In this document: positions 10,344-30,750 of the stretch, in pieces
Numbering within the stretch: the stretch's first letter is position 1
How the letters are laid out: the number at the start of each line of letters is the position of its first letter
Origin: an uncultured Candidatus Saccharibacteria bacterium
GTDB lineage: Bacteria > Patescibacteriota > UBA1384 > JAMDBS01 > DAOVQR01
Direction of reading: 5' to 3'
Assembly: GCA_964481135.1 (NCBI GenBank)
Contig: CAYZSW010000004.1
Span: forward strand, 20,110-84,109
Length of the DNA stretch: 64,000 nucleotides
Translations under genes and position numbers: made by a program
Notes under the pieces: generated by a model
The model's database searches: none
Told to the model about the DNA's origin: nothing
The model's input: the letters and a program-made list of their open reading frames with translations, nothing else

Positions 10344-10347
10344 AATA

Positions 10348-11769
10348 TTGGAAAATATATTAATGCAACAAGACAATCAACAATTCAATAATCAAAATAA
10401 TTTAGAACAAATTAATTTTTCTAAAAATTTTTCAGATGGTCAAAGACAATATACTAATAAACCACCAAAAACCATAAATAAAAAAGTTCAATGGATTATT
10501 GTTGCAATATGCTTACTGGCGATTATTGGAATTTCTTTTTACATATATTATTCAAGATATGCTCTTGGGACATTGGTTATCAAATCTACAACACCAGAAG
10601 TTAATATTAAAGTTTTTGGACAAGAATACGAAAATATCAACGAATTAGAAATTAAGCTACCTCCGTTTCAACACAATGTCCAGATTTATAAAGAAGGATG
10701 CTTAACGCAAACCCAACTGGTAGATATTAAAGCTCTAAGAAAAAATGTGTTGGAGGTAGAGTTGTTAAAAGCAGAGCATGTTGGCAATAGTTCTAATGTT
10801 TTAAATTATTCGGGATTGGCAGCTGTTTCGGGAGATGATATTTATCTGCTAGATTATTCTCAAAATCGGGTAGTAAAAATTACTGAAGATGGCCTTACTA
10901 CTCTTGTAGAATTTGATTTTCTAGATGATATGTTCTTTACGGAAGACAATGTAAGAATTCCTAGGGGTTTTTATCGTTCAAATATTGATAGCTATTCTTG
11001 GGTTAAAAATAATCAAGCTCAAGTTGTTGGTCTAGTATTGTCTTATGAAAAAGATGAAAAAATAATCAATAAATATCTTAACCTTCAAAATGGTGAGATA
11101 CTTGATATTGGTAATAATTTAAACAGTGTTAGAATGAATGAAAATTTAACTTTTGCCTATTTTAGTGAAGATGAGGATTCTTTGGTTTTAGAAACTAAAG
11201 ATTTGAATAACAATGTTAGTAAGAATATTATTAAGACAGATGAATTAATACCTAAAATAGAATGGCTCGACAATAACCATATAATTTATATTTCTTTAGA
11301 GATTAGTGAAGATAATAAAATTTTTAATAAGATAAAAATAATTAATTTAAATACTAAGCAAATTCAAGAATTAGAATTTTCAGATGCAGAAATATCTAAT
11401 TTTGTTATTTCACCAGAGAAAGATAAAATACTAGTCATTTCATCATCAGACCAAGTCAAAAAAGCTACAGTTGTAAATCTCGCCTCAATGCAAAAGCAAG
11501 AAATAAATGATATAAAATTTCATCAGAACTTTGTTGATTTTTATGATAATAATAATTTAGCTTATATATCATCTACTACTCAAGAAAATAAAAATCAAGA
11601 TGATAAATTGGTTTTTAATATTAATAAATTTAATTTAGAAAATCACAATAATGAACAATTGTACCAAATAAAAGATTATTTTTTTGACTTTATAACAGAT
11701 TTTACAATTGGTAAAAATACTCTTTATCTAATCATGAATAACCAAATAATTAGGTTTAACAAGAAATGA
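10348..11769 (+). CDS. membrane-anchored hypothetical protein with PEGA-like beta-sandwich and possible beta-propeller repeats (473 aa)
   Basis: N/Q-rich N-terminus, single TM (WIIVAICLLAIIGISFYIYY), PEGA-like block LVIKSTTPEVNIKVFGQEY...HNVQIYKEGC, then repeated ...DIYLLDYSQNRVV.. strands. Confidence 0.5.
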   Translation: MENILMQQDNQQFNNQNNLEQINFSKNFSDGQRQYTNKPPKTINKKVQWIIVAICLLAIIGISFYIYYSRYALGTLVIKSTTPEVNIKVFGQEYENINELEIKLPPFQHNVQIYKEGCLTQTQLVDIKALRKNVLEVELLKAEHVGNSSNVLNYSGLAAVSGDDIYLLDYSQNRVVKITEDGLTTLVEFDFLDDMFFTEDNVRIPRGFYRSNIDSYSWVKNNQAQVVGLVLSYEKDEKIINKYLNLQNGEILDIGNNLNSVRMNENLTFAYFSEDEDSLVLETKDLNNNVSKNIIKTDELIPKIEWLDNNHIIYISLEISEDNKIFNKIKIINLNTKQIQELEFSDAEISNFVISPEKDKILVISSSDQVKKATVVNLASMQKQEINDIKFHQNFVDFYDNNNLAYISSTTQENKNQDDKLVFNINKFNLENHNNEQLYQIKDYFFDFITDFTIGKNTLYLIMNNQIIRFNKK

Positions 11770-13991
11770 AAAAAATACTAATTACAATATTAATGTTGTT
11801 ATCTGTCTTGACTCCTTTTGAGGTTTTAGCTTATACTCCGCCTCAATACATGTTTGATTTGGATAAAGATGACAATAAATTGCATACTCAAAAGGAATTG
11901 GAAGACGCTAGGGATCCATTTGCAAGAGAGTTTGACAAAAAAATAACTGATGCATTGGTTGTTTACCGAGATGAAAATGGGCGTCCGATCCCACTTGATC
12001 TATCATTGGAATTTATCGGAGAATTAGAAAAAAAAGGTTTTTTTCAGCAGTTTAATATTCCAAGAGCTCTGCATGTGTTAACTGGGATTAGCAATAGTAA
12101 TAAATTTTCAAATGAAATAATTACAGTTACTACGAATGCTACAGTAGAATTTTTTGATCATGCTGTAGTCCCTTCTATGCAGGTAGATAAATATAAAGAC
12201 GGAAAATATTTAAAAAAAATTGGTGAAGAGATATGGACAAGACAATTGAAAATGATTACTTATTTCCAAGATTTAGCAAATAAAAAATTAAATTGGAAAA
12301 GCAAAGGCAATTGGGATAAATTAAATTTTCTAGATGACTGGTATGAATGGCATCCAGAATTTAAAAAATATTATTGCGAAGACGAATGGACGAATTACGA
12401 ATACGATCTTTTAATGAGGTATTACAACAAGAGGCAAGAAATAAAAGCATTAAGAAGTGATTTAGTAACTAAAGCAGAGTATTTACCAGAATATTTAACT
12501 AGAACATTACTTGCGCAAGCAGCATTAAAACTAGGTACACCTCTTTTGGGTTTAGCTCGCTATTATGCGATAGATAAAGCTAGCACAGGAAATTCAGATT
12601 GGCTAACAAGTCCTATCATCGGAAAACTACAAAATCTAAAACCAGAACAAATGTTATTTAGTATAAGAAATGGATTTGATCCGTATGGCCGTCCATTAGA
12701 TCCAAATGACCTATATGTTTATAAAATCATAGGTGGCAAACAAACACTAATTTATTATGGTCGATCAACCAGTACTTTACCTGTTGTTTCAATCGATGTT
12801 GGAGGGCGAAATCTCGGTCCAATTTCACTCCCAATTGACAACACAAAACCGTTTGTGAATCCGGAAAGTATGGCGTTAGTACATAAACCACAATCTAACC
12901 CTGTTGGATTAAACAATACATCTATGTCTCCTGATAAATTATCTCAAGCATTAACTCAACAGGCAGGTAATATTTCCAACGATAAGCTTTTAACAGCTTC
13001 TGCCCAAAGTGTTATTGATAGTCCTGCTATGGTTGTTCCAGTAGAACATTCAAAACCCTTTTTTCATAAAGTAGATTTAGGAGATAAAAGTTTTTTGCTG
13101 GATCATAAAAAAATGTTTAAAAATTCAAATTTACCATTTAATCAAAGTTTAGATACAGCTGAAGATATCATTAATACAACAAAATCGATGGATAACTTTT
13201 TCAAGAATTTTTTTAAAAACGATCCAGAAATGTATAAGAAAGTTAATGATTTGTTAGCAAATGGTTTAAACAAAACATTTGTGATAAAAATGAAGACAAC
13301 TGGTAGTTGCGGGGCATATGAAATATGTTTAAACGAAAAAATTTATTCAATAAAAGATAGATTTGGTGGGCTAGGTTTGGATGGTATAAAGATTACTTTT
13401 GTTGTCAGTAAAGACGGAAAAAAAATGGTTATACACCCTTTGGTACATGAATACATGCATCGTTTAACAGGTTACGGTGAAGGGGGTGAAGGGTATATAG
13501 GGCTCTTCGATTTACCTGAAGGTTCGAATATTAGAAAACTAGCAGAGGGTTTAGTGGAATATAATTCAATTACAGTAACTCAAAAAATAACAGGTACAAA
13601 TTTTATAACAGACCTAGATAGTGATTTTGGATATTACCCTTACGAGCAAGTTTTTTGGAAAAAGATAGATGAAGTTATTCAAATAAAAACACAGCCTATC
13701 TTACACAAAAAAGGATGGTCAGTTGCACAATCGCTGGTATTAAGTAAAAACATCAGCCGTAATATATTACTTGAGTATTATATAAGAGATCCAAAAAATG
13801 TGTTATATAATTTTTTTGGACCAGACTTTTACGAATTACTAGACAGAATAGATTCTGATATGTTGAGTAATGCTCACTTTAATCCAAATGTAAAAATTCC
13901 GGAAATAGATGAAGCGGTTAAGAAATGCAGTGAAATTTTTGATAATTGGCAAAAAAATAACCCCTATTATCCTGAATATTTTAATAAATAA
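11766..13991 (+). CDS. secreted putative zinc metallopeptidase (HEXXH zincin-like), 741 aa
   Basis: Signal peptide (LLSVLTPFEVLAYTPP); canonical HEXXH in LVHEYMHRLTGYGEGGEGY; 4-nt overlap with upstream gene (operon). Confidence 0.5.
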   Translation: MKKILITILMLLSVLTPFEVLAYTPPQYMFDLDKDDNKLHTQKELEDARDPFAREFDKKITDALVVYRDENGRPIPLDLSLEFIGELEKKGFFQQFNIPRALHVLTGISNSNKFSNEIITVTTNATVEFFDHAVVPSMQVDKYKDGKYLKKIGEEIWTRQLKMITYFQDLANKKLNWKSKGNWDKLNFLDDWYEWHPEFKKYYCEDEWTNYEYDLLMRYYNKRQEIKALRSDLVTKAEYLPEYLTRTLLAQAALKLGTPLLGLARYYAIDKASTGNSDWLTSPIIGKLQNLKPEQMLFSIRNGFDPYGRPLDPNDLYVYKIIGGKQTLIYYGRSTSTLPVVSIDVGGRNLGPISLPIDNTKPFVNPESMALVHKPQSNPVGLNNTSMSPDKLSQALTQQAGNISNDKLLTASAQSVIDSPAMVVPVEHSKPFFHKVDLGDKSFLLDHKKMFKNSNLPFNQSLDTAEDIINTTKSMDNFFKNFFKNDPEMYKKVNDLLANGLNKTFVIKMKTTGSCGAYEICLNEKIYSIKDRFGGLGLDGIKITFVVSKDGKKMVIHPLVHEYMHRLTGYGEGGEGYIGLFDLPEGSNIRKLAEGLVEYNSITVTQKITGTNFITDLDSDFGYYPYEQVFWKKIDEVIQIKTQPILHKKGWSVAQSLVLSKNISRNILLEYYIRDPKNVLYNFFGPDFYELLDRIDSDMLSNAHFNPNVKIPEIDEAVKKCSEIFDNWQKNNPYYPEYFNK

Positions 13992-13998
13992 ATTTACT

Positions 13999-16900
13999 AT
14001 GAAAAAAATTTTATCAATTACATTATTTATCTTAGTATTTATAACTTTAACAGCTTTAGTTAAAGCTGATACCCCTTATCCTAATGCTCCAAGGTTTTCT
14101 TTAGAGTATGAAATCGGTCAACTTATTGAAGGTAATGAGCTAACAGAAGTTACACTATTGTGGCATACTCCAGAGAACAACAATAGAGAGCTTCCTTATG
14201 TTTTTACATATGAGATTATCAAAAAAGGTCCAGGTGGTGATGATGTTAGTTTTGTAGTAAATCCCGGCAAGATTTTTGGTAGTCAGGATTTAAATATTGG
14301 ATCTTTTAATGATCCTATGGCAGTTGTTGGAGATACATATACTTACACTTTAATAATTAGAGATACATCCAGCAGATTAGTAGGTAAATATAGTGTTAAT
14401 GTGTCAATACCTATGCCAGAACCCCTAAGTTATGTTGAAGAGGAACCCGAATTTAATAGATTTTATCTTTCGCCTTATTTAGAAGAAGAGCAATTGATTG
14501 AATTTTACAATTCAATCAATAATAAAATTCAGAACGATTCAGAAGAAGAAAATCAAGATGCTATTAAGGCAGAATTTAGTATTGAGCTTGATGGTAAAGT
14601 GGTAAATATTTTGCTGGGGGGTTTTGAATCTGCGGTAAAGAAAAATTTTTCTGAATTTCAAAAATATTTTGAATCTGTATTAAAAAGATATGAATTAGAG
14701 AATAATTATACTATGTCGGGAAACTTGAAAAAATATACTAGTGTAATACCATCTTATAATTACGATTATGATAAAAAGTCAGATAATAACTATTCAATGG
14801 ATGTATTTGTGAAACCATTTTCTTTTCAATATGGTTCTGAGAACACAAGCAAGTATTTAAATATGAAAGCAAGCTATAAATTTAAAGATCAAGACGACAT
14901 TAAGAAAGATTTTAATTTGTATTCTAATCTACAATTTAGTATTGTGCCTGGAAGTAATATCAATGACTCAATAAGATATTTGAAAAGCTCATTATATCAA
15001 AATGAGTTATGTGAAAGGAATTATTCTCTGAAACAGATAGTAAATTCCGAACAAAAAGAAATAGAAAATCAACCATATTATCTTGAATCGCAAATAAAGG
15101 TATATTCTATAGATTCTGAAAGTGGTGAAGAAAAAAAAGAATTAGCTTATTTGCCGATTAATTTTACATTGTTTGAAAATATAGTTTTTGCCCCATTTGC
15201 TAAACATTATTTAGATGAAGTATCTAGGGGTAGAGGAGAAAAAAAATATACATATAATTCTGAACAGTATTATTCATACACTCAGCCTTATTCATATTTA
15301 TTTCCAGAAGACGAAGTTTCCTTTAAACTAAAAATTACTCCAGAAATGATTTTTAGAGCAAAAGATTATGACGGAGAAATTGGACAAGAAGATTTTACAA
15401 ACAGGGTTCAGGAGATCGGTAATATTGAAAATTATAAATTTATAGTTGAATATGATAAAAATAGATTTGATTTAATGCCTCATTCAGTAATAAACTCTAT
15501 GATTCAGGCAGGAGGAGTAGCTTATTTTTATGAAGACAATCCAGATATTGGTATAGTTGAGTTGACTTTTGACGAGGATTCCTTTAATAAGGATACATTA
15601 GAAAAACATATTGAGTTTGTAGGCACTATTAAGGCTGGTAGTGCAGATAATTTATTTACAAATCAAGAGAATATTTTAGAAAAATCAAGCTTAAGGTTTA
15701 ATGTAAAAATTTTGCATTCTGAGGATAATTCTGACAATAGTAATATTATATTTGAAGATGACACTAATTATCTATTATCAAATAGAATTTTCGTTCGTTT
15801 GGCAGGACATAGTATGGAAAATATATTTATTGGTATGATGCGAGGGAATAATAAAGTAAATAGCTGGATACTTAATACTTACGACGATGGACAAAAATAT
15901 TACACGAAGGATCACCAAATCTACAAAGAGATTATTTTAGCTCCACAAAACTTATCTAGTGAATATAGTATTGGCATTAATCCAATAGATGCATACAATT
16001 TAAGTCCAGTGGCTGTTAGAAATATCAAGCCAGCTGACTTGCGTTATTCTTCTGGTATCGGAGGTTATTTATACGATATTAATTTAACCACCGAAGAATA
16101 TAAAAATCTTTTTGCAAGTGTGGGGCGAATTGATTCTGATGAAAAAAACATTTATCCTTATAATATTTACTACTATGATTTTAAGGACCAAGAAAAATCT
16201 TCGCCAATTAAAATTAATACAACTTTTTATCATCTAAATGGTAATAAAAGTAATTTTGATTTTTCTGCTAACAACGGAGAAATTTTTAATGTTACAGGTA
16301 CTTTATTTGCAAACAATGAAACATATATTGAAATTAGTGCTGAAAAAAATGGGCAACCGTCTAAGCAAACTTATAAAATTAATTATGGACTTGGTCTTTC
16401 GCTTGCATCAATCAGGTTTAATATCAATGTGTTCGGTTATCTTTTTGACTATTTATCTAAATATGCAAGCATTGAAAATATGAATTTTACTTTTAATGAG
16501 CCGGGAGAAATCAAACATGAAGAAATATCCTTATCCCCAGAAATCGATGAACAAGAAGTACAAGAATCTTTTAATAAAGATGTGAATGATTATATTGATA
16601 TAGCATTTTACGAATCAAGCGAGGAATATTATAAAGGAATTTCTAAAGAAGCAGAATATGGGAATATAGATACCCCAACATTAGAGCTACAAAAACAATT
16701 AGATGAAGGATCTTACATACAAGAAGTAAAAACATATTTATCAGATATTTATTCAGAAGATTATTTAAATAATCAAGATGATTTTAATGACTTTATGTTT
16801 TTAAAAGATGATGAAGGAAATTTCTTGCTTAATAACGAGATGATGAATTCAAAAATTGAATCTGAACAAGATAAAATTTCATTGTTAGATAATTATTCTC

Positions 16901-19584
16901 AGCAATATTCCGACGATCAGTTTGCTAAGGCCAGTCACATAATCTACAATATCAATCAATTAAATTCTGATTGTGCTAATCAAATCATTGATGAAGATAA
17001 GAAATTTATTACTGAAAACAAAGATTATCTTTCCCAAATAAACGATTTTAACTTTTTGCAAGATACCAGTCAAATACCAGAAAACTGGCCTACTGATTTT
17101 TCAAGTAAACTCAAAAAACACGAAGATAAAATAAGTAGTATTGAATACAATTGCCAAGTAAAGAACATTGAGTATATTAAGCAAATCCAAGATATCCAGC
17201 AAGGAAATGATTCGGCATATTTTTCTTCCTTATATCAAACAATAGAAGACTTCTTTAAATCGCTTGTAAATAATCAGGAAGCTATAGATCAAAAAACTGC
17301 TATCTTTGAAGAATTGAAAGCTAATAATTTTATTCCTGGTTTCTTTGAACCTTTTAGTAAAATATCTCATCGTTATAGCTATATAGATGACGGTCAAATA
17401 ATAGAAGATGAGATAACAGATTATGAGTCACGGCCTGACGATAGTATTTCTTTACCAGAAGATATTTCCCAAATTACCTACCACAACCGTCCACTTACAG
17501 AACAAGAGCTAACAGACCTTATCACACTTGAAGATTTCTTCTATCATGCCCAGTATCCAGAACAATTTAGTCCACTAGATGCAGTTGTGTTTGATCATTT
17601 TGAAAACCTAAAAAGATTCTTTAGAGAAAGAAACCAAGAATTTAGAGCCATTTCTGATCCTCGTTTCCCACAACTATATAATATATTAGATGCTTGTGCC
17701 GACAACAACTATCGTCTTCCTCCAAAACCAGTTGATCATTTTGTCGGTCGCTTTCTAGATCAAGAAGAAAAAGACAAGTTTGCTTACGCAAGAGATCTAA
17801 TCATAGAAAGACAATTTAAATATCCAGACATTGAAAGATCAAACGAAATAGATAGTATCATAGAAGATATCCGTAATTACTTTAGGCCAAAAGAACAAGA
17901 ACTACGACAAATTAATGATCCTCACTTTTTCCATTTAGATATTTTAGATGCACTCTTTAACGGCAGACCTCTTAATATGCCTCCAGGGCAATTTGAAAAC
18001 TTTACACACGATAAAGATCAATTAGATAGTATTAGAGGAATGTTTAAAGATGCCAAACATCTTATCTACACAAAACAATCTCAATCACTTACTTTAGATC
18101 AGCAAGCCAATTATGACAAGATCAAAGAATATTTTACATTGGAAGAAGGAATGCTTAGATCTTTGCCTCACGATATTGTAGACCTTAATGTATTAGATGC
18201 CATGCTTTACAATTTACAACTACCTCCCCAGCCATTTTACGAACCAATTGTAGAGTTTTTTGATGGTGTCGGACATTTCTTTGAAGAAAATATATTTCAA
18301 CCAATAGTAGATCTGTTTTTTCCTCCGCATGATATTACCTACCACAACCGCCCACTCACAGAACAAGAACTAACAGACCTTATCACACTTGAAGATTTCT
18401 TCTATCATGCCCAGTATCCAGAACAATTTAGTCCACTAGATGCAGTTGTGTTTGATCATTTTGAAAACCTAAAAAGATTCTTTAGAGAAAGAAACCAAGA
18501 ATTTAGAGCCATTTCTGATCCTCGTTTCCCACAACTATATAATATATTAGATGCTTGTGCCGACAACAACTATCGTCTTCCTCCAAAACCAGTTGATCAT
18601 TTTGTCGGTCGCTTTCTAGATCAAGAAGAAAAAGACAAGTTTGCTTACGCAAGAGATCTAATCATAGAAAGACAATTTAAATATCCAGACATTGAAAGAT
18701 CAAACGAAATAGATAGTATCATAGAAGATATCCGTAATTACTTTAGGCCAAAAGAACAAGAACTACGACAAATTAATGATCCTCACTTTTTCCATTTAGA
18801 TATTTTAGATGCACTCTTTAACGGCAGACCTCTTAATATGCCTCCAGGGCAATTTGAAAACTTTACACACGATAAAGATCAATTAGATAGTATTAGAGGA
18901 ATGTTTAAAGATGCCAAACATCTTATCTACACAAAACAATCTCAATCACTTACTTTAGATCAGCAAGCCAATTATGACAAGATCAAAGAATATTTTACAT
19001 TGGAAGAAGGAATGCTTAGATCTTTGCCTCACGATATTGTAGACCTTAATGTATTAGATGCCATGCTTTACAATTTACAACTACCTCCCCAGCCATTTTA
19101 CGAACCAATTGTAGAGTTTTTTGAAAATTTAATTTCATTTGAAAATATACTTGGTAAGGCATACGCCCAAGACAATACCGAATCCCCAGAAATTTACTTT
19201 ACTCCGATAAATAGTGATACCAATCAGGAAAGTCAGATAGATAAAGCTTTGGTAGGACAAACAGTGGTTATTAATGCTAGAAACTTCAATCAATCTAAAA
19301 ACATCCAAATTTACTTAGATGATACTTTCTTAGAAGATGCCAAGATCTTAGGTGGGGGATTTGGCATAAAAGTAAAAATGCCACTAGATATTAAATCTGG
19401 AAATTACACCATGAAAGTCATTGGAGATGCCCAAGGTGAATATGTGTTTAAAGATATATATATTGAGCATCCTAGAAACTACAATTGGATTTACTATGTT
19501 TTGGCAGTGTTATTTGTACTTGCCCTTGGATTTGTAATCTACAAAACTAAAAACAAAAAACCACAACAAGATGTTGTGATTTAA
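13999..19584 (+). CDS. giant surface protein (1,862 aa): signal peptide, FN3/Ig-like N-terminal region, internal 287-aa tandem duplication, SPEIYFT-type domain and C-terminal TM anchor
   Basis: ATG at 13999 is in frame with the ORF-track start and 8 nt after the upstream stop; signal MKKILSITLFILVFITLTALVKA; C-terminal WIYYVLAVLFVLALGFVIY TM plus basic tail. Confidence 0.7.
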   Translation: MKKILSITLFILVFITLTALVKADTPYPNAPRFSLEYEIGQLIEGNELTEVTLLWHTPENNNRELPYVFTYEIIKKGPGGDDVSFVVNPGKIFGSQDLNIGSFNDPMAVVGDTYTYTLIIRDTSSRLVGKYSVNVSIPMPEPLSYVEEEPEFNRFYLSPYLEEEQLIEFYNSINNKIQNDSEEENQDAIKAEFSIELDGKVVNILLGGFESAVKKNFSEFQKYFESVLKRYELENNYTMSGNLKKYTSVIPSYNYDYDKKSDNNYSMDVFVKPFSFQYGSENTSKYLNMKASYKFKDQDDIKKDFNLYSNLQFSIVPGSNINDSIRYLKSSLYQNELCERNYSLKQIVNSEQKEIENQPYYLESQIKVYSIDSESGEEKKELAYLPINFTLFENIVFAPFAKHYLDEVSRGRGEKKYTYNSEQYYSYTQPYSYLFPEDEVSFKLKITPEMIFRAKDYDGEIGQEDFTNRVQEIGNIENYKFIVEYDKNRFDLMPHSVINSMIQAGGVAYFYEDNPDIGIVELTFDEDSFNKDTLEKHIEFVGTIKAGSADNLFTNQENILEKSSLRFNVKILHSEDNSDNSNIIFEDDTNYLLSNRIFVRLAGHSMENIFIGMMRGNNKVNSWILNTYDDGQKYYTKDHQIYKEIILAPQNLSSEYSIGINPIDAYNLSPVAVRNIKPADLRYSSGIGGYLYDINLTTEEYKNLFASVGRIDSDEKNIYPYNIYYYDFKDQEKSSPIKINTTFYHLNGNKSNFDFSANNGEIFNVTGTLFANNETYIEISAEKNGQPSKQTYKINYGLGLSLASIRFNINVFGYLFDYLSKYASIENMNFTFNEPGEIKHEEISLSPEIDEQEVQESFNKDVNDYIDIAFYESSEEYYKGISKEAEYGNIDTPTLELQKQLDEGSYIQEVKTYLSDIYSEDYLNNQDDFNDFMFLKDDEGNFLLNNEMMNSKIESEQDKISLLDNYSQQYSDDQFAKASHIIYNINQLNSDCANQIIDEDKKFITENKDYLSQINDFNFLQDTSQIPENWPTDFSSKLKKHEDKISSIEYNCQVKNIEYIKQIQDIQQGNDSAYFSSLYQTIEDFFKSLVNNQEAIDQKTAIFEELKANNFIPGFFEPFSKISHRYSYIDDGQIIEDEITDYESRPDDSISLPEDISQITYHNRPLTEQELTDLITLEDFFYHAQYPEQFSPLDAVVFDHFENLKRFFRERNQEFRAISDPRFPQLYNILDACADNNYRLPPKPVDHFVGRFLDQEEKDKFAYARDLIIERQFKYPDIERSNEIDSIIEDIRNYFRPKEQELRQINDPHFFHLDILDALFNGRPLNMPPGQFENFTHDKDQLDSIRGMFKDAKHLIYTKQSQSLTLDQQANYDKIKEYFTLEEGMLRSLPHDIVDLNVLDAMLYNLQLPPQPFYEPIVEFFDGVGHFFEENIFQPIVDLFFPPHDITYHNRPLTEQELTDLITLEDFFYHAQYPEQFSPLDAVVFDHFENLKRFFRERNQEFRAISDPRFPQLYNILDACADNNYRLPPKPVDHFVGRFLDQEEKDKFAYARDLIIERQFKYPDIERSNEIDSIIEDIRNYFRPKEQELRQINDPHFFHLDILDALFNGRPLNMPPGQFENFTHDKDQLDSIRGMFKDAKHLIYTKQSQSLTLDQQANYDKIKEYFTLEEGMLRSLPHDIVDLNVLDAMLYNLQLPPQPFYEPIVEFFENLISFENILGKAYAQDNTESPEIYFTPINSDTNQESQIDKALVGQTVVINARNFNQSKNIQIYLDDTFLEDAKILGGGFGIKVKMPLDIKSGNYTMKVIGDAQGEYVFKDIYIEHPRNYNWIYYVLAVLFVLALGFVIYKTKNKKPQQDVVI
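17473..19131 (+). repeat. near-perfect tandem direct duplication (period 861 bp, 2 copies) inside the giant gene
   Basis: Copy 2 (18334-19131) matches copy 1 (17473-18270) except for a few synonymous differences near the start (ccgtccactt/ccgcccactc, gagcta/gaacta); the protein repeat ITYHNRPLTEQELTDL...PIVEFF is identical. Confidence 0.9.
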
Positions 19585-19820
19585 TTCTATAATTGAATTA
19601 GGTAAAGCATAAATAAACTTATTTGTTGCAGGTTAGTTTAGATGGCTTTTTTTCGTAATGTTAGCTTATTTATCGATAATTAGGTTTAATGTGAACTAGT
19701 GGTGGACGACACAGGACTTGTCCATCCAATTGTCTTACTATACCTATTACATAGTGTTATTATAGTGTAGCAATTTGGAGGATCCGCCTTTGGCGGAAAC
19801 CTAAATATTTTAATTATTAC

Positions 19821-19897
19821 TGGTGCATCCAAGTGGATTTGAACCACTGACCTCCACAATGTCAATGTGACGCTCTAACCAGCTGAGCTATGGATGC
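19821..19897 (-). tRNA. tRNA-Val (GAC), CCA encoded
   Basis: Reverse complement GCATCCATAGCTCAGCTGGTTAGAGCGTCACATTGACATTGTGGAGGTCAGTGGTTCAAATCCACTTGGATGCACCA; anticodon loop TTGACAT. Confidence 0.85.
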
Positions 19898-20009
19898 ATA
19901 TACACTGGCGGGCAGGTAACCAATTGAGCTAGTCGTCCAAACATTATTTCATCATTAAAACAGATACTAATTTTATCACAATAATATTTGAGTATCAATA
20001 TTCATCTAG

Positions 20010-21002
20010 CTAATAACTTCCATACCCAGGTTCTAATCTTTCAACTTCTCCTACAGTTCCTATTGATCTATAGTAACCAGGGTCTTGCCCCTGCATACCG
20101 GTTTTAGAATAAGCGTTTGTTGAAACTTGATAGGTTTGTCCTGTTGAAGGCGAATGTACTGTTTCGTATCCTAGTATTGCTTCAGACCATTTTTCAGACA
20201 AATCTTTTTTGTCAGAAGAATCACTTACTGAGTTTGATGTTGAAGAAAATCCATCGTCTGGGCTTGGAGTAATTTGTGCTTGACATCTGATTGATATTGC
20301 TACGGCCGAAGGAATTGCTCCATTTTTTTCCCAGCTATCGACTGTTGTAAAACCAGTATAATAACTTAATATGTAACCATAGTCATCAACCGGGTATTTT
20401 TTGTATAATGCAATGCCTTTAATATTTTTCCCTTCTGTAGTAGATGAAAAATCACGCATTATAAAGCCACCGTCTACGGTCTTTGCGTCTTGGGAAAAAG
20501 TAAAATTTTCATTGCCTAATGCTTCCATCATTAGTTTAACAGCATTTTCTGGTTCTCCTCCCCAGCCATATAAAATAGGGGCTATAAACCATCCAGCGCC
20601 TTGGGTTTTTTCTGGGTTATATAAGTCAACTCCACGACCACTTTCATCTGATGTAATAATCCAATCTTTTGGAGTTAGTGCTTTACAGTATCCTGCTGAT
20701 TTTTGAATGAATTCAACTGGATTAAATTGATCTATTGTAGTTATTCTGGGTTTTGCAGTTTCTTCCGAAGGCTTGATTTCAAATTCAAAATTATCAACAT
20801 CATTTTCGCTAATATCGTCAAAATATTTGTATGTGTTTGAAAACCAATAAATTATACTTATTAGTGCTATTAATAAAACTAGAGGTGTTCCGATAATTAC
20901 TACTTTGCCAATTGGTTTGTTCCAAAATTCCACAAATTTATTATTTTGTTGAGGAATGTTATTTGTTTTAGTTTGATTTGGTGTTTCGTTATTATCAAAC
21001 AT
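20010..21002 (-). CDS. membrane-anchored hypothetical protein (330 aa)
   Basis: N/Q-rich N-terminus, single TM (VVIIGTPLVLLIALISIIYWF), extracytoplasmic globular domain with S-rich linker; no recognisable motif. Confidence 0.5.
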   Translation of the reverse strand: MFDNNETPNQTKTNNIPQQNNKFVEFWNKPIGKVVIIGTPLVLLIALISIIYWFSNTYKYFDDISENDVDNFEFEIKPSEETAKPRITTIDQFNPVEFIQKSAGYCKALTPKDWIITSDESGRGVDLYNPEKTQGAGWFIAPILYGWGGEPENAVKLMMEALGNENFTFSQDAKTVDGGFIMRDFSSTTEGKNIKGIALYKKYPVDDYGYILSYYTGFTTVDSWEKNGAIPSAVAISIRCQAQITPSPDDGFSSTSNSVSDSSDKKDLSEKWSEAILGYETVHSPSTGQTYQVSTNAYSKTGMQGQDPGYYRSIGTVGEVERLEPGYGSY

Positions 21003-21025
21003 TTAATGTCCTTAAATAGTTTAAT

Positions 21026-21673
21026 TTATTTATCGCTTAAAATTTCATCAACTTTATTTTTTAAATTTTCGTATGTTGGGTTGAAATCTATTAGTTCGTT
21101 ATTAAAGAAGAATGTTGGTGTTCCAGTTAAATTCACACTTTGTGCTTTTTGCATATGTCTTTGAATTTTTGATTTTATTTCGTCTGAATTCTTATCGTTT
21201 TCAAACTGATTCATATCAAGACCAATCTTTTCTGCCGATTGTTTAATGCTTTCTGTGTCTAATTTATCAACCAAATAAAGTTTATCGTACATTTCCCATG
21301 CTTTATTTTGTTTAGCAGCTGCCTCAAAAGAAAGTGCAGCCTCCATGGCATTGGGGTGATAAGAAAGCGGGTAATGTAAATAGATAAATTTTACTTTATC
21401 TTTATATTCGTCAGTAAATTTTTTAATTTCTTCAAAATAATTTATACAGGCTGGGCATTCAAAATCAGCAATTTCAATTAAAGCTATTTGTGCATCTTCA
21501 CTTCCTTTAAAGAATTCATCTTGTTCTAAATTTTTTATTAATTCGGAATTGATTGGCTGGTTTTTATTTGTACTATCTCCTTTTATTGAACCGTTACTTT
21601 CAGAGTAGCTTTCGCAACCTGTTAAAAATGTACTAATTAATAAAATTAAAACAATATATGTGTATTTTTTCAT
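21026..21673 (-). CDS. DsbA-like thiol:disulfide oxidoreductase lipoprotein (thioredoxin fold)
   Basis: Lipobox LTGC; CPAC active-site motif in ADFECPACINYF. Confidence 0.75.
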   Translation of the reverse strand: MKKYTYIVLILLISTFLTGCESYSESNGSIKGDSTNKNQPINSELIKNLEQDEFFKGSEDAQIALIEIADFECPACINYFEEIKKFTDEYKDKVKFIYLHYPLSYHPNAMEAALSFEAAAKQNKAWEMYDKLYLVDKLDTESIKQSAEKIGLDMNQFENDKNSDEIKSKIQRHMQKAQSVNLTGTPTFFFNNELIDFNPTYENLKNKVDEILSDK

Positions 21674-21710
21674 TTTTCTCCTTTTTTTATCGTTATATTA
21701 ATTATACTAT

Positions 21711-24386
21711 TTATTTGTAATTATTTCTAATTGCTTTATCAATTTCTACGACTATGAATATTGTTGATGCTACTAATATTGTCATTGTCCATTCTCTTAA
21801 AGAAAGAGGTTGGGTTCTAAAAAGTGTTTGTAAGAATTTTGTTTGGGTTGTAAGAATAGTAAGTACAACGGAAATAATTGTCATAGGGATAATATATTTA
21901 TTATTTAAAAACTTAAGTTTTAGTAGCGAACTTGACATAGACTGAGCATTAAATACATTAAATACTTGGAATAGTATCATAGTAATAAATGCAAATGTTC
22001 GCGCTTTATCTAATTCATATCCACTATTTAAAATAAATTTATATAATGCAAGTGTGCCAATAGTCATAGTTAAAGAAACTATTATCATTCTAACAAAAGA
22101 TATATTATCTATAAAACCAGCTTTTAATCTTTTGGGATTAAGTTCTTCGATTTTTTTGTGTTTGGGTTCTACTGCCAGGGCTATAGCACCGGTAATATCA
22201 GTAATTAAATTAATCCATAATATTTGAACAGCAATTAAAGGAATTGGTAAATTAATTATTAGACTTGTGACAAGTATACACACTTCACCAATATTTGTAG
22301 ATAAAAAATAAAAAATAATTCTTCTAATGTTTAAGAACATTGTTCTGCCTTCTTCTATTGCAGCAATAATAGTAGAAAAATTATTATCAAGTAAAATAAT
22401 ATCTGATGCTTCGCGAGCCACATCTGTTCCGCCAATACCCATAGCAATACCTACATCAGCTTTTTTTAAAACTGGTGCGTCATTTACTCCGTCTCCAGTA
22501 ACACCAACAATATTTCCTTGTTTTTGCAGAGCTTTAGCAATTTTATATTTTGTCTCGGGAGTAATACGAGCAAATACAGAAACATCTTTAACAACACTAA
22601 GTAGTTGGGCTTCGTTTAATTTTTCAATTTCTTGTCCTGTTAATATTTTGTCTCCTTTTTTGGCAATATGTGTTTTTATAGCAATAGCTAAAGCGGTTTC
22701 AGGATGATCACCGGTAATCATAATTGGTCTAATTCCAGATTTCAAACATTTTTGAATAGCAACAATCGCATCTTTTTTAGGAGGATCTTCAAGACAGGTA
22801 AATCCAAGATAAGTAAGGTTTGAAATATTGTTTTCTTGAATTCTTTTTTGTGAATAATTATCAAACTTAGCAAAACCAAGTATTCGATAGGCGTTTTTTG
22901 CTTCATAAATAAATTTTTGTTCTATTTCTTTTTTAATTTGACTGGTTAATTTTAATTTTTTTCCGTTTGATAAGTAAAAAGAACACATATTTAGAATTAT
23001 TTCAATTTTTCCTTTTACAGCCAGTAAATTCCCTTTTGAAGTTTTGTGCAAGGTTGCCATATAACCCTTATCAGAAGAAAACTGTATTTCATCGATTCTA
23101 GGATAATTTTTATTTAATTCATCTTTATTAATTTGAGCTTTTTGAGAAGTAACTAGTAGTGATCCTTCAGTGGGGTCGCCTTGGATTTGCCATTGATTTT
23201 CTTTTAAATAAACCGAGGCATCATTACATAGAGTAGATATTTTTAGCAGGGTAGCTAGATCAATATTTTTGTTAAAATCAATTTTTTTATTGTTAATATA
23301 AAAATTTCCTTTAGGTTCATATCCTTCACCATCAATATCAACAATATTTGTATTTGATAAATAAATTTTTTTTAAAGACATTTCATTTAGTGTAAGAGTT
23401 CCAGTTTTATCAGATGCAATTACATTAATACTGCCTAGTGTTTCAATTGCTTGCATTTTTCTAATTAAAGCTTTTCTTTTTACCATTCTGTTAACACCGA
23501 TTGCAAGTACTATAGTAATCATTGCTGGAAGCCCTTCTGGAATAGCAGAAACCCCAGCTGAAACAGTTGTAAAAAACATTTCTATTGCTGTTTGTTCTCG
23601 CCAAATACCAAGAGCAAAAATCATTAAACACACCAAACCAACAATATATAAAATAACTTTTCCCAAGGAATCCATTTTTTTGTTTAATGGGGAAACTTCT
23701 TCTTTAGTTGTTGCAACTTGCTTTGCAATTTTTCCAATTTCAGTGTTTTCGCCCGTGGTAACAACAATACCTAGTCCTTTTCCGGAACTAACAATGGTTG
23801 ATGAATATACCATATTTTTTCTATCCGCTAAAGTTGTTTCAGTAGGAAGTTTTTCAATATTTTTTCTTACTGTGGTTGATTCGCCTGTAAATATAGATTC
23901 ATCAACAGATAATTCATCAGATTTAATAAGTCGAATATCAGCAGGTATTTTTTGACCAGTATTAATAACTACAATATCTCCAATAACTAATTCTTTAGCA
24001 TCTATTTCGGTTTCTTTATTTTCGCGAATTACTAAACACTTGTAAGTAAAAAGTTTTTTTATTGCTTCTAGCGATTTTTCTGCTTTAAGTTCTTGTATGA
24101 ACCCAACTAGAGTATTAATAATTACTACTGCTCCTACAACTGCCGAATCAATGTATTTTTGTAAAAATAAAGTTACAATAACTACTACTAAAAGAATATA
24201 AATTAAAGGACTTTTAAATTGTTTAAGAAATATTTTCAGTGGCGTCACAGAGCTTTTTTGATTAATATCATTTGCACCATATTTTTTATATCTTAAAACT
24301 GCTTCTTTTTTACTAAGACCTTGTAAATTTACATTAAATTTTTTTTGTATTTCACCTATATCAAGATTATGCCAATTATTTTGCAT
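21711..24386 (-). CDS. P-type cation-transporting ATPase (type IIA Ca2+/Mg2+-like)
   Basis: DKTGTLT phosphorylation motif, TGES, GDGVNDAPVLKKADVGIAMG hinge motif, 10 TM architecture. Confidence 0.9.
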   Translation of the reverse strand: MQNNWHNLDIGEIQKKFNVNLQGLSKKEAVLRYKKYGANDINQKSSVTPLKIFLKQFKSPLIYILLVVVIVTLFLQKYIDSAVVGAVVIINTLVGFIQELKAEKSLEAIKKLFTYKCLVIRENKETEIDAKELVIGDIVVINTGQKIPADIRLIKSDELSVDESIFTGESTTVRKNIEKLPTETTLADRKNMVYSSTIVSSGKGLGIVVTTGENTEIGKIAKQVATTKEEVSPLNKKMDSLGKVILYIVGLVCLMIFALGIWREQTAIEMFFTTVSAGVSAIPEGLPAMITIVLAIGVNRMVKRKALIRKMQAIETLGSINVIASDKTGTLTLNEMSLKKIYLSNTNIVDIDGEGYEPKGNFYINNKKIDFNKNIDLATLLKISTLCNDASVYLKENQWQIQGDPTEGSLLVTSQKAQINKDELNKNYPRIDEIQFSSDKGYMATLHKTSKGNLLAVKGKIEIILNMCSFYLSNGKKLKLTSQIKKEIEQKFIYEAKNAYRILGFAKFDNYSQKRIQENNISNLTYLGFTCLEDPPKKDAIVAIQKCLKSGIRPIMITGDHPETALAIAIKTHIAKKGDKILTGQEIEKLNEAQLLSVVKDVSVFARITPETKYKIAKALQKQGNIVGVTGDGVNDAPVLKKADVGIAMGIGGTDVAREASDIILLDNNFSTIIAAIEEGRTMFLNIRRIIFYFLSTNIGEVCILVTSLIINLPIPLIAVQILWINLITDITGAIALAVEPKHKKIEELNPKRLKAGFIDNISFVRMIIVSLTMTIGTLALYKFILNSGYELDKARTFAFITMILFQVFNVFNAQSMSSSLLKLKFLNNKYIIPMTIISVVLTILTTQTKFLQTLFRTQPLSLREWTMTILVASTIFIVVEIDKAIRNNYK

Positions 24387-24408
24387 TTTACCTCTTTATT
24401 TTATGGTT

Positions 24409-25149
24409 TTAAATAAATTTAACCAGATACATTATTAGTATTCCTACAATAAAAAAGCTAAAACTTACAATTGATTTAACTAAAGATTTTTCTTTGCGAA
24501 TTTCTGGAATTAAATCTGAAGCTGCAATATAAATAAACCCTCCTGCAGCAATTGGTAAAAGATATAATTCAATATTTTCGGAATATTCTATTAAATAATA
24601 ACCAACTATACCGCCGGTTAATGCTGTTAGAGCTGTTAGAAAATTAAAAAAAAGTGCTTTAGTTTTTGTATATCCTGAGAATAATAGAACTCCAAAATCG
24701 CCAATTTCTTGAGGAATTTCATGTAATGCTATAGCAATTGTTGTACTAATTCCAAGCGCTGGGTTAACCATAAATCCTGTAGCAATTATTAGTCCATCAA
24801 TAAAATTGTGCACAGCGTCTCCAATTAAATTCATTGTTCCAAAAGTATGTACTTCGCATTTTTCTTTATGACAATGTCTCCAATGAAGAACTTTTTCAAT
24901 TATAAAAAATATTATAAATGCAATCAAAGTCCAAGTAAAAATATTTATATTACTTTCTTCTGCTTTTTCTTGTGCTTCTGGTAATAAATGCAAAAATGCA
25001 CCTCCCATAAGAGCGCCAGATGAAAGCCCAACTAAAACAATCAACATTTTTTGAACTAATTTATCTTTTAAAGATAGTGTAAAGATTCCTATTAGAGATA
25101 TTACGCTTATTGCAAGCGTTGCTAAAATAATCTGAAGAAGTATATTCAT
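24409..25149 (-). CDS. ZIP-family divalent metal (zinc) transporter, ZupT-like
   Basis: HNFIDGLIIA and HEIPQEIGDFGVL signature helices; multiple TM segments. Confidence 0.75.
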   Translation of the reverse strand: MNILLQIILATLAISVISLIGIFTLSLKDKLVQKMLIVLVGLSSGALMGGAFLHLLPEAQEKAEESNINIFTWTLIAFIIFFIIEKVLHWRHCHKEKCEVHTFGTMNLIGDAVHNFIDGLIIATGFMVNPALGISTTIAIALHEIPQEIGDFGVLLFSGYTKTKALFFNFLTALTALTGGIVGYYLIEYSENIELYLLPIAAGGFIYIAASDLIPEIRKEKSLVKSIVSFSFFIVGILIMYLVKFI

Positions 25150-25350
25150 AAATTTCCTTTCTTTTTCTATATCATATCAAAAATCTAGAAAAATAATAAA
25201 TTTTGATTTTATAGAGATGTTAGAATATTTTTAATAATGCGTTATTGATTGACTTTAGTACAAATATTGTGTATGATATTCTAGTTATTAATAAAATCGA
25301 CAATAACAAGGGAATACCCTTTTTTTATTTTATCACCCTTCGCCAAAAAA

Positions 25351-25487
25351 CCCTGTGGTCTTAAGTCACAGGAATGAATGGCGAAAGGATGATGCCCCGA
25401 AGCTTTAGCGAAGGGGAAGTTGATCGAAGGCTACGGGTGATGAATTTAAAATAATCCCTAGATACCCTGTGGTCTTAAGCCACAGGG
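25351..25487 (+). promoter_or_regulatory. structured GC-rich 5' leader of typA with two near-identical flanking hairpins
   Basis: ccctgtggtcttaagtcacagg ... ccctgtggtcttaagccacaggg bracket an approximately 90-nt GC-rich core immediately upstream of the typA start (25510). Confidence 0.5.
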
Positions 25488-25509
25488 AAATTCATTTTAA
25501 AGATTAAAT

Positions 25510-27327
25510 ATGATTAAAAATGTTGCAATTATTGCTCATGTTGACCATGGTAAAACCACACTTGTTGATGGTTTATTAAAGCAATCACAAACTTTTCGTG
25601 ATAACGAGGCAGAAATGAGTCAAGAACTAATTATGGATTCTTTTGACCAGGAGCGTGAAAGGGGAATAACGATTTTAGCTAAAAACACTGCGATAAATTA
25701 TAAAGGTATAAAAATAAACATTATTGACACACCAGGTCACGCGGATTTCGGCGGTGAAGTTGAAAGAACTTTAAATATGGCCGATGGGGCAATTCTAGTT
25801 GTTGATGCTCAGGAAGGTCCTATGCCTCAAACTAGATTTGTACTTAAAAAAGCGCTAGAAATGGGGTTAAAAATTATTGTTGTAATAAATAAGATAGATA
25901 AAAAAAACGCACAAATTGATACTGTTTTAAATGAGATATCAGATTTATTTTTAGATTTAGCACAAGATGAGTCGCAACTTGATTTTCCAGTTTTTTATGC
26001 AATTGGAAGAGAAGGTAAGTCATGGGTAGATATGCCAGAGGATATAACCCAGAAATCAGATTTAACACAAATATTTGAAGCTATTATTAAATATATTCCA
26101 GAATCTATTTCCAATAAAGATGCTAGTTTCCAAATGCTTGTATCTGCTCTAGATTGGGATGATTATAAGGGTAAATATGCAATTGGTAGAATTAAAAAAG
26201 GTTTAGCTAAGCCAGGAGCACAGGTTTGTTTAATGCAAAATAATGCAATCAAAGAATCAGGAAGAATTGATAAAGTTTTTATTAACACTGGACTTAAAAG
26301 AATTGAAGAAAAAGTTGCCGTTTCTGGCGATATAGTTGCTATTACAGGGCTAAAAAATGTATCAATCGGAGATACTATTTCTGATAAAAATAATCCTGAA
26401 TCATTAGAAGGAATAAAAATCGAAGAACCAACATTAAAAATTTCAATATCTGCAAATACTTCTCCGTTTGCCGGGCAAGAAGGTCAATTTGTAACTGGCA
26501 GACAAATATTAGACAGAATAAAAAAAGAATTAGAAACAAATGTTTCTATGAGATTAGAAATAAATAACGATGGTGAATATGTACTTTCTGGCAGAGGTGA
26601 ATTACATTTAACAGTATTTGTAGAAACTTTAAGACGCGAAGGATATGAATTGCAACTTGGTAAACCTCAAGTTGTAACAAAATTAATTGACGGAGTTATT
26701 TATGAACCGATCGAAGAATTAATAGTTGAATCAGAGAATGCTTATACAAATAATATAATAACTGAGATTACTCGTAGAAAAGGAATTTTACTTTTACAAA
26801 AAGATTTAAACAATGGAAATACTTTTTTAAAATTTGAAATATCTACTCGTGGTTTAATTGGTTTCAGAAATAAACTTCTTACTTTATCAAAAGGAACTGC
26901 AGTTGCTAATTCAATGTTTTTAAACTTTTCTCCAAAAACCAACAATTTATCTAAGATGAGAAATGGAGTTTTAGTTGCATCAGATTCTGGTAAAGCTGTT
27001 ACATATGGATTAAATAATGCTCAAAGTAGAGGAATTACATTTATCGAGCCACAAACACAAGTTTACGAAGGAATGATCGTTGGTTTAGGCTCTAGAAATA
27101 ATGATTTAGATATTAATGTAACAAAAGAAAAAAAATTAACAAATATTAGATCATCTAATTCTGATATATCTGTGATATTAACACCGGCTACACAATTGTC
27201 GCTAGAACAATCAATAGAATTTTTAGAAGATGACGAACTTTTAGAAGTTACTCCAAAAAACTTAAGATTAAGAAAAAAAATTCTAGATAAATCTCTTCGA
27301 GCTAAATCTAAAAATAAAGTTAACTAA
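25510..27327 (+). CDS. typA: translational GTPase TypA/BipA
   Basis: AHVDHGKTTL G1 motif, DTPGHADF, NKIDK, EF-G-like domain organisation, 605 aa. Confidence 0.92.
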   Translation: MIKNVAIIAHVDHGKTTLVDGLLKQSQTFRDNEAEMSQELIMDSFDQERERGITILAKNTAINYKGIKINIIDTPGHADFGGEVERTLNMADGAILVVDAQEGPMPQTRFVLKKALEMGLKIIVVINKIDKKNAQIDTVLNEISDLFLDLAQDESQLDFPVFYAIGREGKSWVDMPEDITQKSDLTQIFEAIIKYIPESISNKDASFQMLVSALDWDDYKGKYAIGRIKKGLAKPGAQVCLMQNNAIKESGRIDKVFINTGLKRIEEKVAVSGDIVAITGLKNVSIGDTISDKNNPESLEGIKIEEPTLKISISANTSPFAGQEGQFVTGRQILDRIKKELETNVSMRLEINNDGEYVLSGRGELHLTVFVETLRREGYELQLGKPQVVTKLIDGVIYEPIEELIVESENAYTNNIITEITRRKGILLLQKDLNNGNTFLKFEISTRGLIGFRNKLLTLSKGTAVANSMFLNFSPKTNNLSKMRNGVLVASDSGKAVTYGLNNAQSRGITFIEPQTQVYEGMIVGLGSRNNDLDINVTKEKKLTNIRSSNSDISVILTPATQLSLEQSIEFLEDDELLEVTPKNLRLRKKILDKSLRAKSKNKVN

Positions 27328-27394
27328 CTTTGATTTATATATTTTAATAAATGTATTTAAAAATTTGTTGAAGTAAAATTAATAAAATTTAATC

Positions 27395-27487
27395 TCCCTC
27401 CGCGGAACTCCTCGACCGCCAGCCTTGCCTGCCTTGTCGACCTTGTCGGCAGACAGGTCGGTTCACCTCGCGAAGCGGGCAGACATG
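27395..27487. repeat. GC-rich repeat element (cttgcctgccttgtcg...tcggcagacagg family)
   Basis: gccttgcctgccttgtcgaccttgtcggcagacaggtcgg is the inverse-orientation relative of 61437-61482 and shares the gtctgccgacagg core with 645-668 and 51659-51695. Confidence 0.6.
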
Positions 27488-27524
27488 TAAAGTCGTGGGA
27501 TCTTCAATAATATCTATAAAAAAA

Positions 27525-27552
27525 ATCAGCCTAATTAAAAGCTGATTTTGAA
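27525..27552 (-). terminator. rho-independent terminator (bidirectional-looking hairpin; T8 run on the minus strand)
   Basis: atcagc-ctaattaaaa-gctgat hairpin; the minus-strand reading is followed by tttttttt directly after the stop of the 27555-27836 gene. Confidence 0.6.
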
Positions 27553-27554
27553 AT

Positions 27555-27836
27555 TTATTTTGCTGAAATTTTTAAAAAATTTACATATTTTTGAATTTGT
27601 TTTTTTATTTGAAAGCCGTTCGCCGTTACAAGAAGAAAATATTTAGTTCCTTCGGTGTCCTCGGCGAGAAAAATTAATTCTTTGTCGCTTTTTGCTATTT
27701 CGTCTATAATCCAATCTGTTTCTGCGACTTTTGTGATTTGAATATTATCTTTCTCACATTTTTTCAGGAAAGGGACCAAAATTTCTTCTTCGTAGATCTT
27801 TTCGGCTTCCTCCCATGTCATACTCATTTTTTCCAC
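27555..27836 (-). CDS. small hypothetical protein (93 aa)
   Basis: Acidic ORF with good codon usage, downstream of the GNAT gene on the same strand. Confidence 0.45.
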   Translation of the reverse strand: MEKMSMTWEEAEKIYEEEILVPFLKKCEKDNIQITKVAETDWIIDEIAKSDKELIFLAEDTEGTKYFLLVTANGFQIKKQIQKYVNFLKISAK

Positions 27837-27934
27837 CTCCTTATAAATTTTTTTTCAATAATGAGATTGCGTTTTTTGGTATTATTAATAATCCCAATAT
27901 CCTTGTGCTTCTATGGTTGATTCCTTAAGTTTTT

Positions 27935-28516: not shown

Positions 28517-28917
28517 AGTGATAAATGTTTTTTATTAATAATGGATGTTGAACTTAGCTTACCAAAAATACTAAAGAAATCAATGTGGTTTCTTGACTGG
28601 GCACACCGATAATAAATTAATTTTAATAATTAATAAAAAACAGCTCTATCTCGCGACAAACTTTGCTGACCTCTTGGCCTGTTTCGATTCTCAACAGGTT
28701 CGAATTTCGAGTCTGTTGAGAAAGTTTATCGAGAAATGGAGTTGAGGGGAGATAAGCACTTTTCTAAAAACCACTCGGTTTTTAGTATTTTCCTCTACGG
28801 TAAAACAACTGTTTTCTCCGCCTAGTCTCGGCGAGACTGGCCGACCCCTTTCCTCGGTGCAACTCTCCTAAATTCCCACAAACAACAAATACCCAGCAAA
28901 ACTGAGTATTTCTTGTT

Positions 28918-30157: not shown

Positions 30158-30174
30158 TAAGTTATAATTATAAA

Positions 30175-30618: not shown

Positions 30619-30750
30619 AATTTTTCATTTTAATTCTACTAATATTTAATCTAATGCAACTAGTTATCTTTTATTAAGAACATTAGAATTATCATTCTTA
30701 TTATACCTGTTTTTGACATTACATTAAAGTAGTGATAACTTTAAATTAAG

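Follow-up and report, generated by a model that had tools for sequence, protein, structure and literature searches.

Genomic Locus and Predicted Topology of the Giant Protein

The subject of this study is a long intragenic repeat in the gene for a giant surface protein of an uncultured Candidatus Saccharibacteria bacterium (assembly GCA_964481135.1, contig CAYZSW010000004.1, positions 20,110–84,109). This stretch of 64,000 nucleotides is referred to below as the window, and coordinates are given relative to its first letter. The gene occupies positions 13999–19584 of the plus strand and encodes 1861 amino acids (aa) from M31 of the mechanically called open reading frame (ORF), whose start is at 13909; the 1861-aa form is also the one on the NCBI record (P0002). 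The gene closes a same-strand run of four orphan genes for secreted or membrane proteins of 802, 468, 741, and 1861 aa. The three upstream genes (7935–13991) have no Pfam match, and each encodes a single N-terminal hydrophobic segment.

A hydropathy scan of the giant protein yields only two hydrophobic segments, both encoded, like the other features of the gene, on the plus strand: an N-terminal, signal-peptide-like one (13999–14070; MKKILSITLFILVFITLTALVKA followed by D, with the cleavage site predicted from the sequence), and a C-terminal transmembrane (TM) one (19483–19548; NWIYYVLAVLFVLALGFVIY), which is followed by a basic tail, KTKNKK.... The LPXTG motif is absent, and the predicted topology is that of a large exported ectodomain tethered at the C-terminus by a single TM helix. 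Immediately before the anchor lies a membrane-proximal domain (19183–19473), delimited with HMMER, tblastn, and blastn, which is the most conserved part of the family described below and, judging by its sequence pattern, is probably beta-rich. Otherwise the protein lacks recognizable features: no Pfam family matches it at E ≤ 0.01, the N-terminal 1150 aa contain no recognizable Pfam domain, and a comparison with PDB sequences gives nothing below E = 0.2.

Structure of the Repeat

When the sequence is compared with itself at an offset of 861 bp, identity stays at the background level of about 30% except where positions 17473–18263 face positions 18334–19124. These two segments, denoted R1 and R2, are 791 bp long each (263 complete codons plus two nucleotides) and differ at three positions, that is, they are 99.6% identical at the DNA level, which is far beyond what chance can account for. 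All three mismatches (17490, 17496, and 17508) lie at third codon positions in the first 36 bp and are synonymous, and thus the R1 and R2 peptides are the same; the final 755 bp of the copies show no differences at all. R1 and R2 are separated by a 70-bp in-frame linker, S (18264–18333), which encodes (D)GVGHFFEENIFQPIVDLFFPPHD and has no second copy in the window according to blastn, while R2 is followed by ENLISFENILGK / ENLISFENILGKAYAQD instead of the linker. The overall order is therefore L–R1–S–R2–T with a period of 287 codons (861 bp), the whole region being in frame within the ORF 13909–19584. An earlier note, made from the letters of the window and its list of ORFs, had described an 861-bp near-identical duplication at 17473–19131, consisting of two identical 287-codon units with a few synonymous differences at their 5′ ends. 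The period, the start, the reading frame, and the synonymous 5′ differences all hold, as does, on the predicted topology, the location in the exposed part of a surface protein; the identity itself spans 791 bp and 263 codons per copy, ends at 19124, and leaves out the unique 70 bp.

Tandem Repeats Finder missed the repeat because the longest period scanned was 500, shorter than 861. We also considered other kinds of elements. Apart from the giant gene itself, neither strand of R1 or R2 holds an ORF of 50 aa or more, so that a mobile-element insertion was rejected; an RNA element was rejected as well, no RNA family overlapping the repeat and the sole nearby Rfam match being tRNA-Val. A diversity-generating retroelement does not fit either, as the repeat is 791 bp long rather than about 100–150 bp, the mismatches do not follow the template-adenine pattern, and no reverse transcriptase was found by Pfam among the six neighboring genes scanned.

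One possible history starts from the very recent duplication suggested in the earlier note: an L–R–T ancestor would have duplicated 861 bp in tandem de novo, and the differences between the copies would be new mutations. This agrees with the near-zero synonymous divergence over 755 bp. However, such a duplication should yield identity over 861 bp, whereas the match covers just 791 bp and the remaining 70 bp are unique. The distribution of the differences is also at odds with it: if mutations fell evenly, the probability of all three lying in the first 36 bp would be (36/791)^3 = 9e-5, and adding two further sites, observed in other contigs (see below), gives (226/791)^5 = 0.002, so that the confinement of differences to the 5′ edge has p of about 1e-4 to 2e-3. 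The five discriminating sites span 17490–17698 of R1 (repeat positions 18, 24, 36, 135, and 226), with base differences T/C, T/C, G/A, C/T, and G/T, respectively.

Sub-repeats Are Predicted to Form a Helical Domain

Each R unit is built of three sub-repeats, each about 86 aa long and diverged from the others, which lie at approximately 17488–17745, 17749–18006, and 18022–18261 in R1, and 18349–18606, 18610–18867, and 18883–19122 in R2. They were not detected by self-BLASTP of the giant protein but were detected by pairwise Smith–Waterman alignment (z = 10, 4.2, and 6.9, with zero shuffles matching the observed score) and by a hidden Markov model (HMM), which places the domains of R1 at aa 1164–1249, 1251–1336, and 1342–1421 and also recovers those of R2. 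The domain is conserved, with invariant LDA and Arg positions.

An AlphaFold2 model of a single sub-repeat, based on an alignment of ten sub-repeat sequences from the giant protein and its relatives, predicts a compact helical domain of two long helices and a short one with a proline-rich tail (mean predicted local distance difference test score, pLDDT, 88; predicted template modeling score, pTM, 0.73). Foldseek comparison of this model with PDB gave no match, all E-values being above 3, and a model of several domains (R1, S, and the start of R2) likewise had no match at E < 1. The array defines a small new repeat domain, predicted to be helical, together with its linker motif.

Conservation of the Linker in Distant Relatives

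An exhaustive HMMER search with R2 and T as a query yielded 15 proteins, four of which (P0004, P0005, P0006, and P0007; 2199–2427 aa) share the C-terminal architecture of the window protein over about 900 aa. The number of sub-repeats recognized by the HMM varies from 0 to 6 across the family. In relatives bearing sub-repeats, whose identity to the repeat region is only 24–34%, the peptide encoded by S (PQPFYEPIVEFFDGVGHFFEENIFQPIVDLFFPP in the window protein) is retained at an equivalent position after a sub-repeat, namely, as PQPFFEPVVEFFHDHVFEPIIHFFDP in P0004, IQENIIQPIVDFFSPP in P0005, and VGGFFEEHILNPIQDIF in P0007. The similarity is significant (z = 5.5, 8.7, and 7.4, respectively; the score was reached by none of 300 shuffles), and the motif is missing from relatives without sub-repeats. 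Since the linker is conserved at this distance, S is a selected part of the protein rather than junction filler.

One of these relatives, P0004, is encoded by the locus L087 of a co-resident organism and has a two-unit repeat of its own, with a period of 196 codons, 83% DNA identity over 455 bp, patches of 100% identity, and units joined by the same type of linker. The internal pairs of P0004 are L087 positions 8491–8944 and 9079–9532 (83% DNA identity), and 7091–7232 and 7403–7538 (72%), both joined by an FxEP(I/V)..FF linker motif. These pairs show recurrent duplication or homogenization in the family. To judge from these proteins, unit arrays joined by linkers of the S type are the family norm, and since the relatives share this arrangement of two units and a linker, it is likely to be old. 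A 70-bp motif conserved in relatives only 24–34% identical to the region is hard to reconcile with an 861-bp segment duplicated de novo.

The relatives also differ from the window protein elsewhere. Four of them, P0003, P0004, P0006, and P0007, carry an HExxH region in their conserved middle part (HELVH, HEFSH, HEYSH, and HEFSH, respectively), and this segment may be metalloprotease-like; the giant protein of the window has no HExxH anywhere. The N-termini of P0005 and P0006 resemble the separate 802-aa protein of the window, and hence the four-gene cluster may correspond to one fused giant protein elsewhere.

Copy Number in Independent Assemblies

Contigs of the same population were reached through neighboring genes and aligned to the window. 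They come from three assembly pipelines, all based on short reads of the 150-bp class, and derive from the IMG metagenomes 3300033170 and 3300033177, which are listed as Wageningen anaerobic-digester samples (PMC10159854). Exact look-ups of the 1891-, 1861-, and 1574-aa protein forms, and of a predicted 162-aa Logan fragment, found no match, and neither the C-terminal 894 aa nor a 35-nt pattern from the R end had one in genome and metagenome contig collections, which do not hold this population.

Outside the window, the two-copy state is seen in L002, an independent MEGAHIT contig from another sample (European Nucleotide Archive, ENA; ERZ27252296), which is 100% identical to window positions 18143–31002 and thus covers T, R2, S, and the last 121 bp of R1, with both S junctions. 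The one-copy state is represented by L001/L090 (MEGAHIT, ERZ27252304 in ENA; 32,089 bp), which reads L–R–T with exactly 861 bp missing, and by P0001, a protein entry (Joint Genome Institute, JGI, and ENA; 33,845-bp longest contig listed) with a 1574-aa product, that is, 1861 – 287. The comparison of copy number among samples proposed in the earlier note has therefore turned up both one-copy (P0001 and L001/L090) and two-copy (the window and L002) assemblies of the same population, all of them short-read, and a one-copy versus two-copy polymorphism is likely but unproven.

Four more contigs terminate inside the repeat. Three of them come from the left and end exactly one k-mer beyond a single-nucleotide polymorphism (SNP) specific to one of the copies: L092 (Logan) at 17538 = 17508 + 30, L006 (JGI) at 17825 = 17698 + 127, and L005 (MEGAHIT k141) at 17839 = 17698 + 141. 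The fourth, L004 (JGI), enters from the right and breaks off after 99 bp of R2. Termination one k-mer past a copy-specific SNP is the behavior of a de Bruijn graph in which the two R paths merge.

This bears directly on the concern, also voiced in the earlier note, that the second copy is an assembly over-expansion: the true gene would have one copy, and the second would come from a spurious loop or from joined strain variants. Misassembly is a classic problem at long near-perfect repeats, and contigs with a single copy do exist. However, the unique S requires reads that join the end of R to S and S to the start of R, and the same junctions are found at 100% identity in the independent assembly of another sample. 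Moreover, R1 and R2 carry different 5′ SNPs, S preserves the frame and matches the family motif, and contigs stop where two R paths merge. Taking all this into account, we regard an artefactual second copy as very unlikely.

The opposite error deserves more weight. If every genome had R1–S–R2, the 1574-aa contigs would come from assemblers skipping the 861-bp loop. In agreement with this, four assemblies break inside R, as expected of a region that is hard to assemble, and the breaks of L005 and L006 one k-mer after T17698 imply that a second R path exists where the haplotype of the one-copy contig dominates the sample; besides, all the data are short-read, and genes with repeats need long reads (PMC8201768). 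On the other hand, L001/L090 reads through the region with a single copy over a 32,089-bp contig and the 1574-aa product is also listed by both JGI and ENA, the S branch would be expected at about half the local coverage and would not normally be pruned, and the one-copy contigs share a consistent haplotype (the 7556–7578 cluster described below, T17607, and T17698). A fixed two-copy gene thus seems unlikely, though by no means negligible.

L001/L090, L005/L091, and L006 have T at 17607 (C/T) and T at 17698 (G/T, Ala to Ser), while in R1 of the window these positions are C and G, i.e., the R2 state at both. The only other difference in this part of the locus is a cluster of five SNPs in 23 bp (7556–7578, in a 125-aa ORF), which sets L090, L091, and L093 apart from the window and may be a small conversion tract; a copy of the L087 paralogue was considered as its source and rejected, as the cluster has no sequence match to L087. 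Elsewhere, beyond R1 and this cluster, more than 15 kb of the contigs show no difference from the window, and hence all local strain differences, barring the 23-bp cluster, are sites where R1 takes the R2 state. For the duplication history this is a further difficulty. The occurrence of a one-copy allele in the same population speaks for it, but at 17607 and 17698 that allele differs from both copies of the two-copy form, and parallel changes would be required. We consider a fresh duplication improbable on the whole. Clustering of the differences at the 5′ edge, together with R1 taking R2 states, fits better with conversion and crossover in an older two-unit architecture.

Neighboring Genes, Taxonomic Placement, and Shared Blocks

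With a G+C content of about 30%, the window carries a tmRNA and bacterial tRNAs. No species representative has a BipA more than 69% identical to the one encoded here. The best matches (65–69%), which give no more than a coarse taxonomic placement, are mostly metagenome-assembled genomes (MAGs) of the Candidate Phyla Radiation (CPR), namely, Patescibacteria, CPR2, Berkelbacteria, and Saccharibacteria; a few others bear the label Chloroflexota or just "bacterium." No homologue of the giant protein or of its three upstream neighbors lies in the flanks of 80 loci that carry BipA in relatives. Among the six neighboring genes scanned, Pfam matches were limited to a thioredoxin/DsbA-like protein and a P-type ATPase.

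The C-terminal domain of the giant protein also occurs on its own. A 160-aa ORF at 6938–7420, with a signal-like N-terminus and a C-terminal TM segment, holds a diverged version of it (27–33% aa identity, tblastn), and stand-alone proteins of 140–160 aa, P0013 and P0015, match the same region of the HMMER query. In addition, window positions 19163–19497, which span this domain, match a block of L088, a locus that is otherwise unrelated, at 96.7% DNA identity (blastn). More generally, blocks of 94–97% DNA identity are shared by window positions 7422–8174 and 19163–19497, L088 positions 3958–4203 and 8648–8982, and L087 positions 926–1467. At the start of the cluster the shared blocks take in the 125-aa ORF and about 80 codons from the beginning of the 802-aa gene, and at its end the C-terminal domain of the giant gene; throughout the part between them, as well as in the flanking genes, these otherwise unrelated surface-protein loci of one digester study differ. 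Logan contigs L092, L094, and L095, coming from different runs, all start exactly at 7811, which suggests a graph branch (a repeat or a variant) in the conserved 5′ block that precedes the 802-aa gene.

The conserved blocks look like "handles" through which paralogous clusters would exchange cassettes or undergo gene conversion. A more ambitious proposal would be a lineage-wide recombination system for surface variation, in which homogenized intragenic modules provide a switch of stalk length between three and six domains and the cluster ends serve as handles for swapping the middle cassette. Such a system would be a candidate mechanism by which an episymbiotic bacterium changes its attachment to the host or escapes recognition by the host or by phages; at present we hold it to be doubtful.

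Discussion

The repeat is a real in-frame module of two nearly identical units that is probably maintained and varied by recombination. Concerning its history, we lean, with some reservation, toward an old two-unit design that was homogenized by gene conversion and in which a crossover produced a one-copy allele, thereby altering the length or valency of the stalk in a periscope-like manner.

The order of events can be proposed as follows. The ancestor would have had the structure R1(a,T,T)–S–R2(b,C,G), with the 3′ 565 bp already homogenized. Gene conversion would keep R1 and R2 near-identical, leaving differences only in the first 36–226 bp, and the direct repeat of about 0.8 kb would be a substrate for homologous recombination. 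A crossover within the identical 3′ 565 bp would delete exactly 861 bp (R plus S) and yield L–R(a,T,T)–T, that is, the 1574-aa allele. In the lineage of the window, an R2-to-R1 conversion tract would have replaced repeat sites 135 and 226, and R1 would have the R2 bases at 17607 and 17698 because of this tract. Neither step would need more than ordinary homologous recombination among direct repeats. As a result, the array would switch between three and six helical sub-domains of about 86 aa, with proline-rich connectors, next to the membrane-proximal domain, and the switch would alter either the distance of the N-terminal ectodomain from the membrane or the number of modules displayed. The anatomy of the repeat, its junctions in an independent assembly, the conserved linker, the clustered differences, and the one-copy and two-copy assemblies are observed directly, while the direction of these events, the biological nature of the one-copy allele, and any functional effect are what we infer.

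Several observations weigh against this history or limit its reach. What reads as one copy in some contigs could be a two-copy genome collapsed during assembly, as short-read assemblers can skip the loop; similarly, the bases of R1 at 17607 and 17698 in the window could be an artefact of consensus calling or bubble popping rather than a result of conversion. Conversion agrees with the sharp end of identity on the 3′ side, which is nevertheless no proof of it. The left end of L002 lies 121 bp into R1, while the simple rule for k = 141 predicts about 141 bp. The assemblies present one-copy and two-copy states only, with no copy-number series. As for the stalk, the multi-domain AlphaFold2 model of R1, S, and the start of R2 is all-helical but unreliable (pLDDT 60, pTM 0.31), so that a rod-like stalk is only conjectural.

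Doubling of the unit may also act via valency rather than length, if the modules bind a ligand, e.g., a component of the host cell or of the cell wall, and two units double the avidity. In favor of this, the modeled sub-repeat is compact and folded, and it is conserved, its LDA and Arg positions being invariant; some stalk repeats are known to bind ligands as well (PMC8201768). However, the module has no known ligand, fold match, or family annotation, and sub-repeats are missing in several relatives that keep the remaining architecture, as expected of an optional spacer. Hence, we find an effect through valency instead of length rather unlikely.

The closest known analogues of the proposed length variation are the Periscope Proteins, bacterial surface proteins of variable length (examples are SasG/Aap, Rib/alpha C, and Sgo_0707 SHIRT) whose repeats are so alike at the DNA level that the number of repeats and the length of the stalk vary as a consequence (Whelan et al., 2021, PMC8201768). 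Similarly, the window protein is predicted to be C-terminally anchored, its membrane-proximal repeats are near-identical at the DNA level, and closely related genomes may differ in repeat number, presumably by recombination, the genomes in our case being short-read assemblies. Repeats forming three-helix bundles occur among the Periscope Proteins (PMC8201768), and three-helix repeats are predicted in the window protein too. There are also differences: the window protein has one or two copies and not a long array; its unit is very long (263 aa) and built of three diverged sub-domains; the copies are parted by a unique linker and do not abut; the anchor is a TM helix, not LPXTG; and the protein belongs to a CPR organism and has no Pfam domain.

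Concerted evolution of intragenic repeats by gene conversion is a general phenomenon, and the present repeat resembles it in several respects: the tract of perfect identity is bordered by a short zone of older differences, strain differences occur where one copy adopts the state of the other, and the deletion allele lacks exactly one period. The difference is that here the events are deduced from assembled contigs only. The Vsa and Vlp proteins of Mycoplasma, small-genome, host-associated, wall-less bacteria, are another parallel, being membrane-anchored surface proteins whose length changes by repeat gain and loss; their repeats, however, are many and short, measuring tens of residues, and phase-variation switches often act together with them. 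We know of no sequence relationship between them and the window protein.

Viewed against these systems, the giant protein is a fairly ordinary case of a recombination-prone, length-variable surface protein, which is an expected feature and not a new principle; new are the previously undescribed helical repeat and its linker within a known class of variable-length, repeat-bearing surface proteins. There is a practical side as well: short-read MAGs give this gene two lengths, 1574 and 1861 aa, which is relevant to the clustering and annotation of such proteins.

A life attached to host cells is assumed for CPR bacteria, or Patescibacteria, and no part of their genomes is less well understood than the large orphan surface proteins. 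A module that is probably length-polymorphic and homogenized by recombination provides a concrete handle on surface variation in this group.

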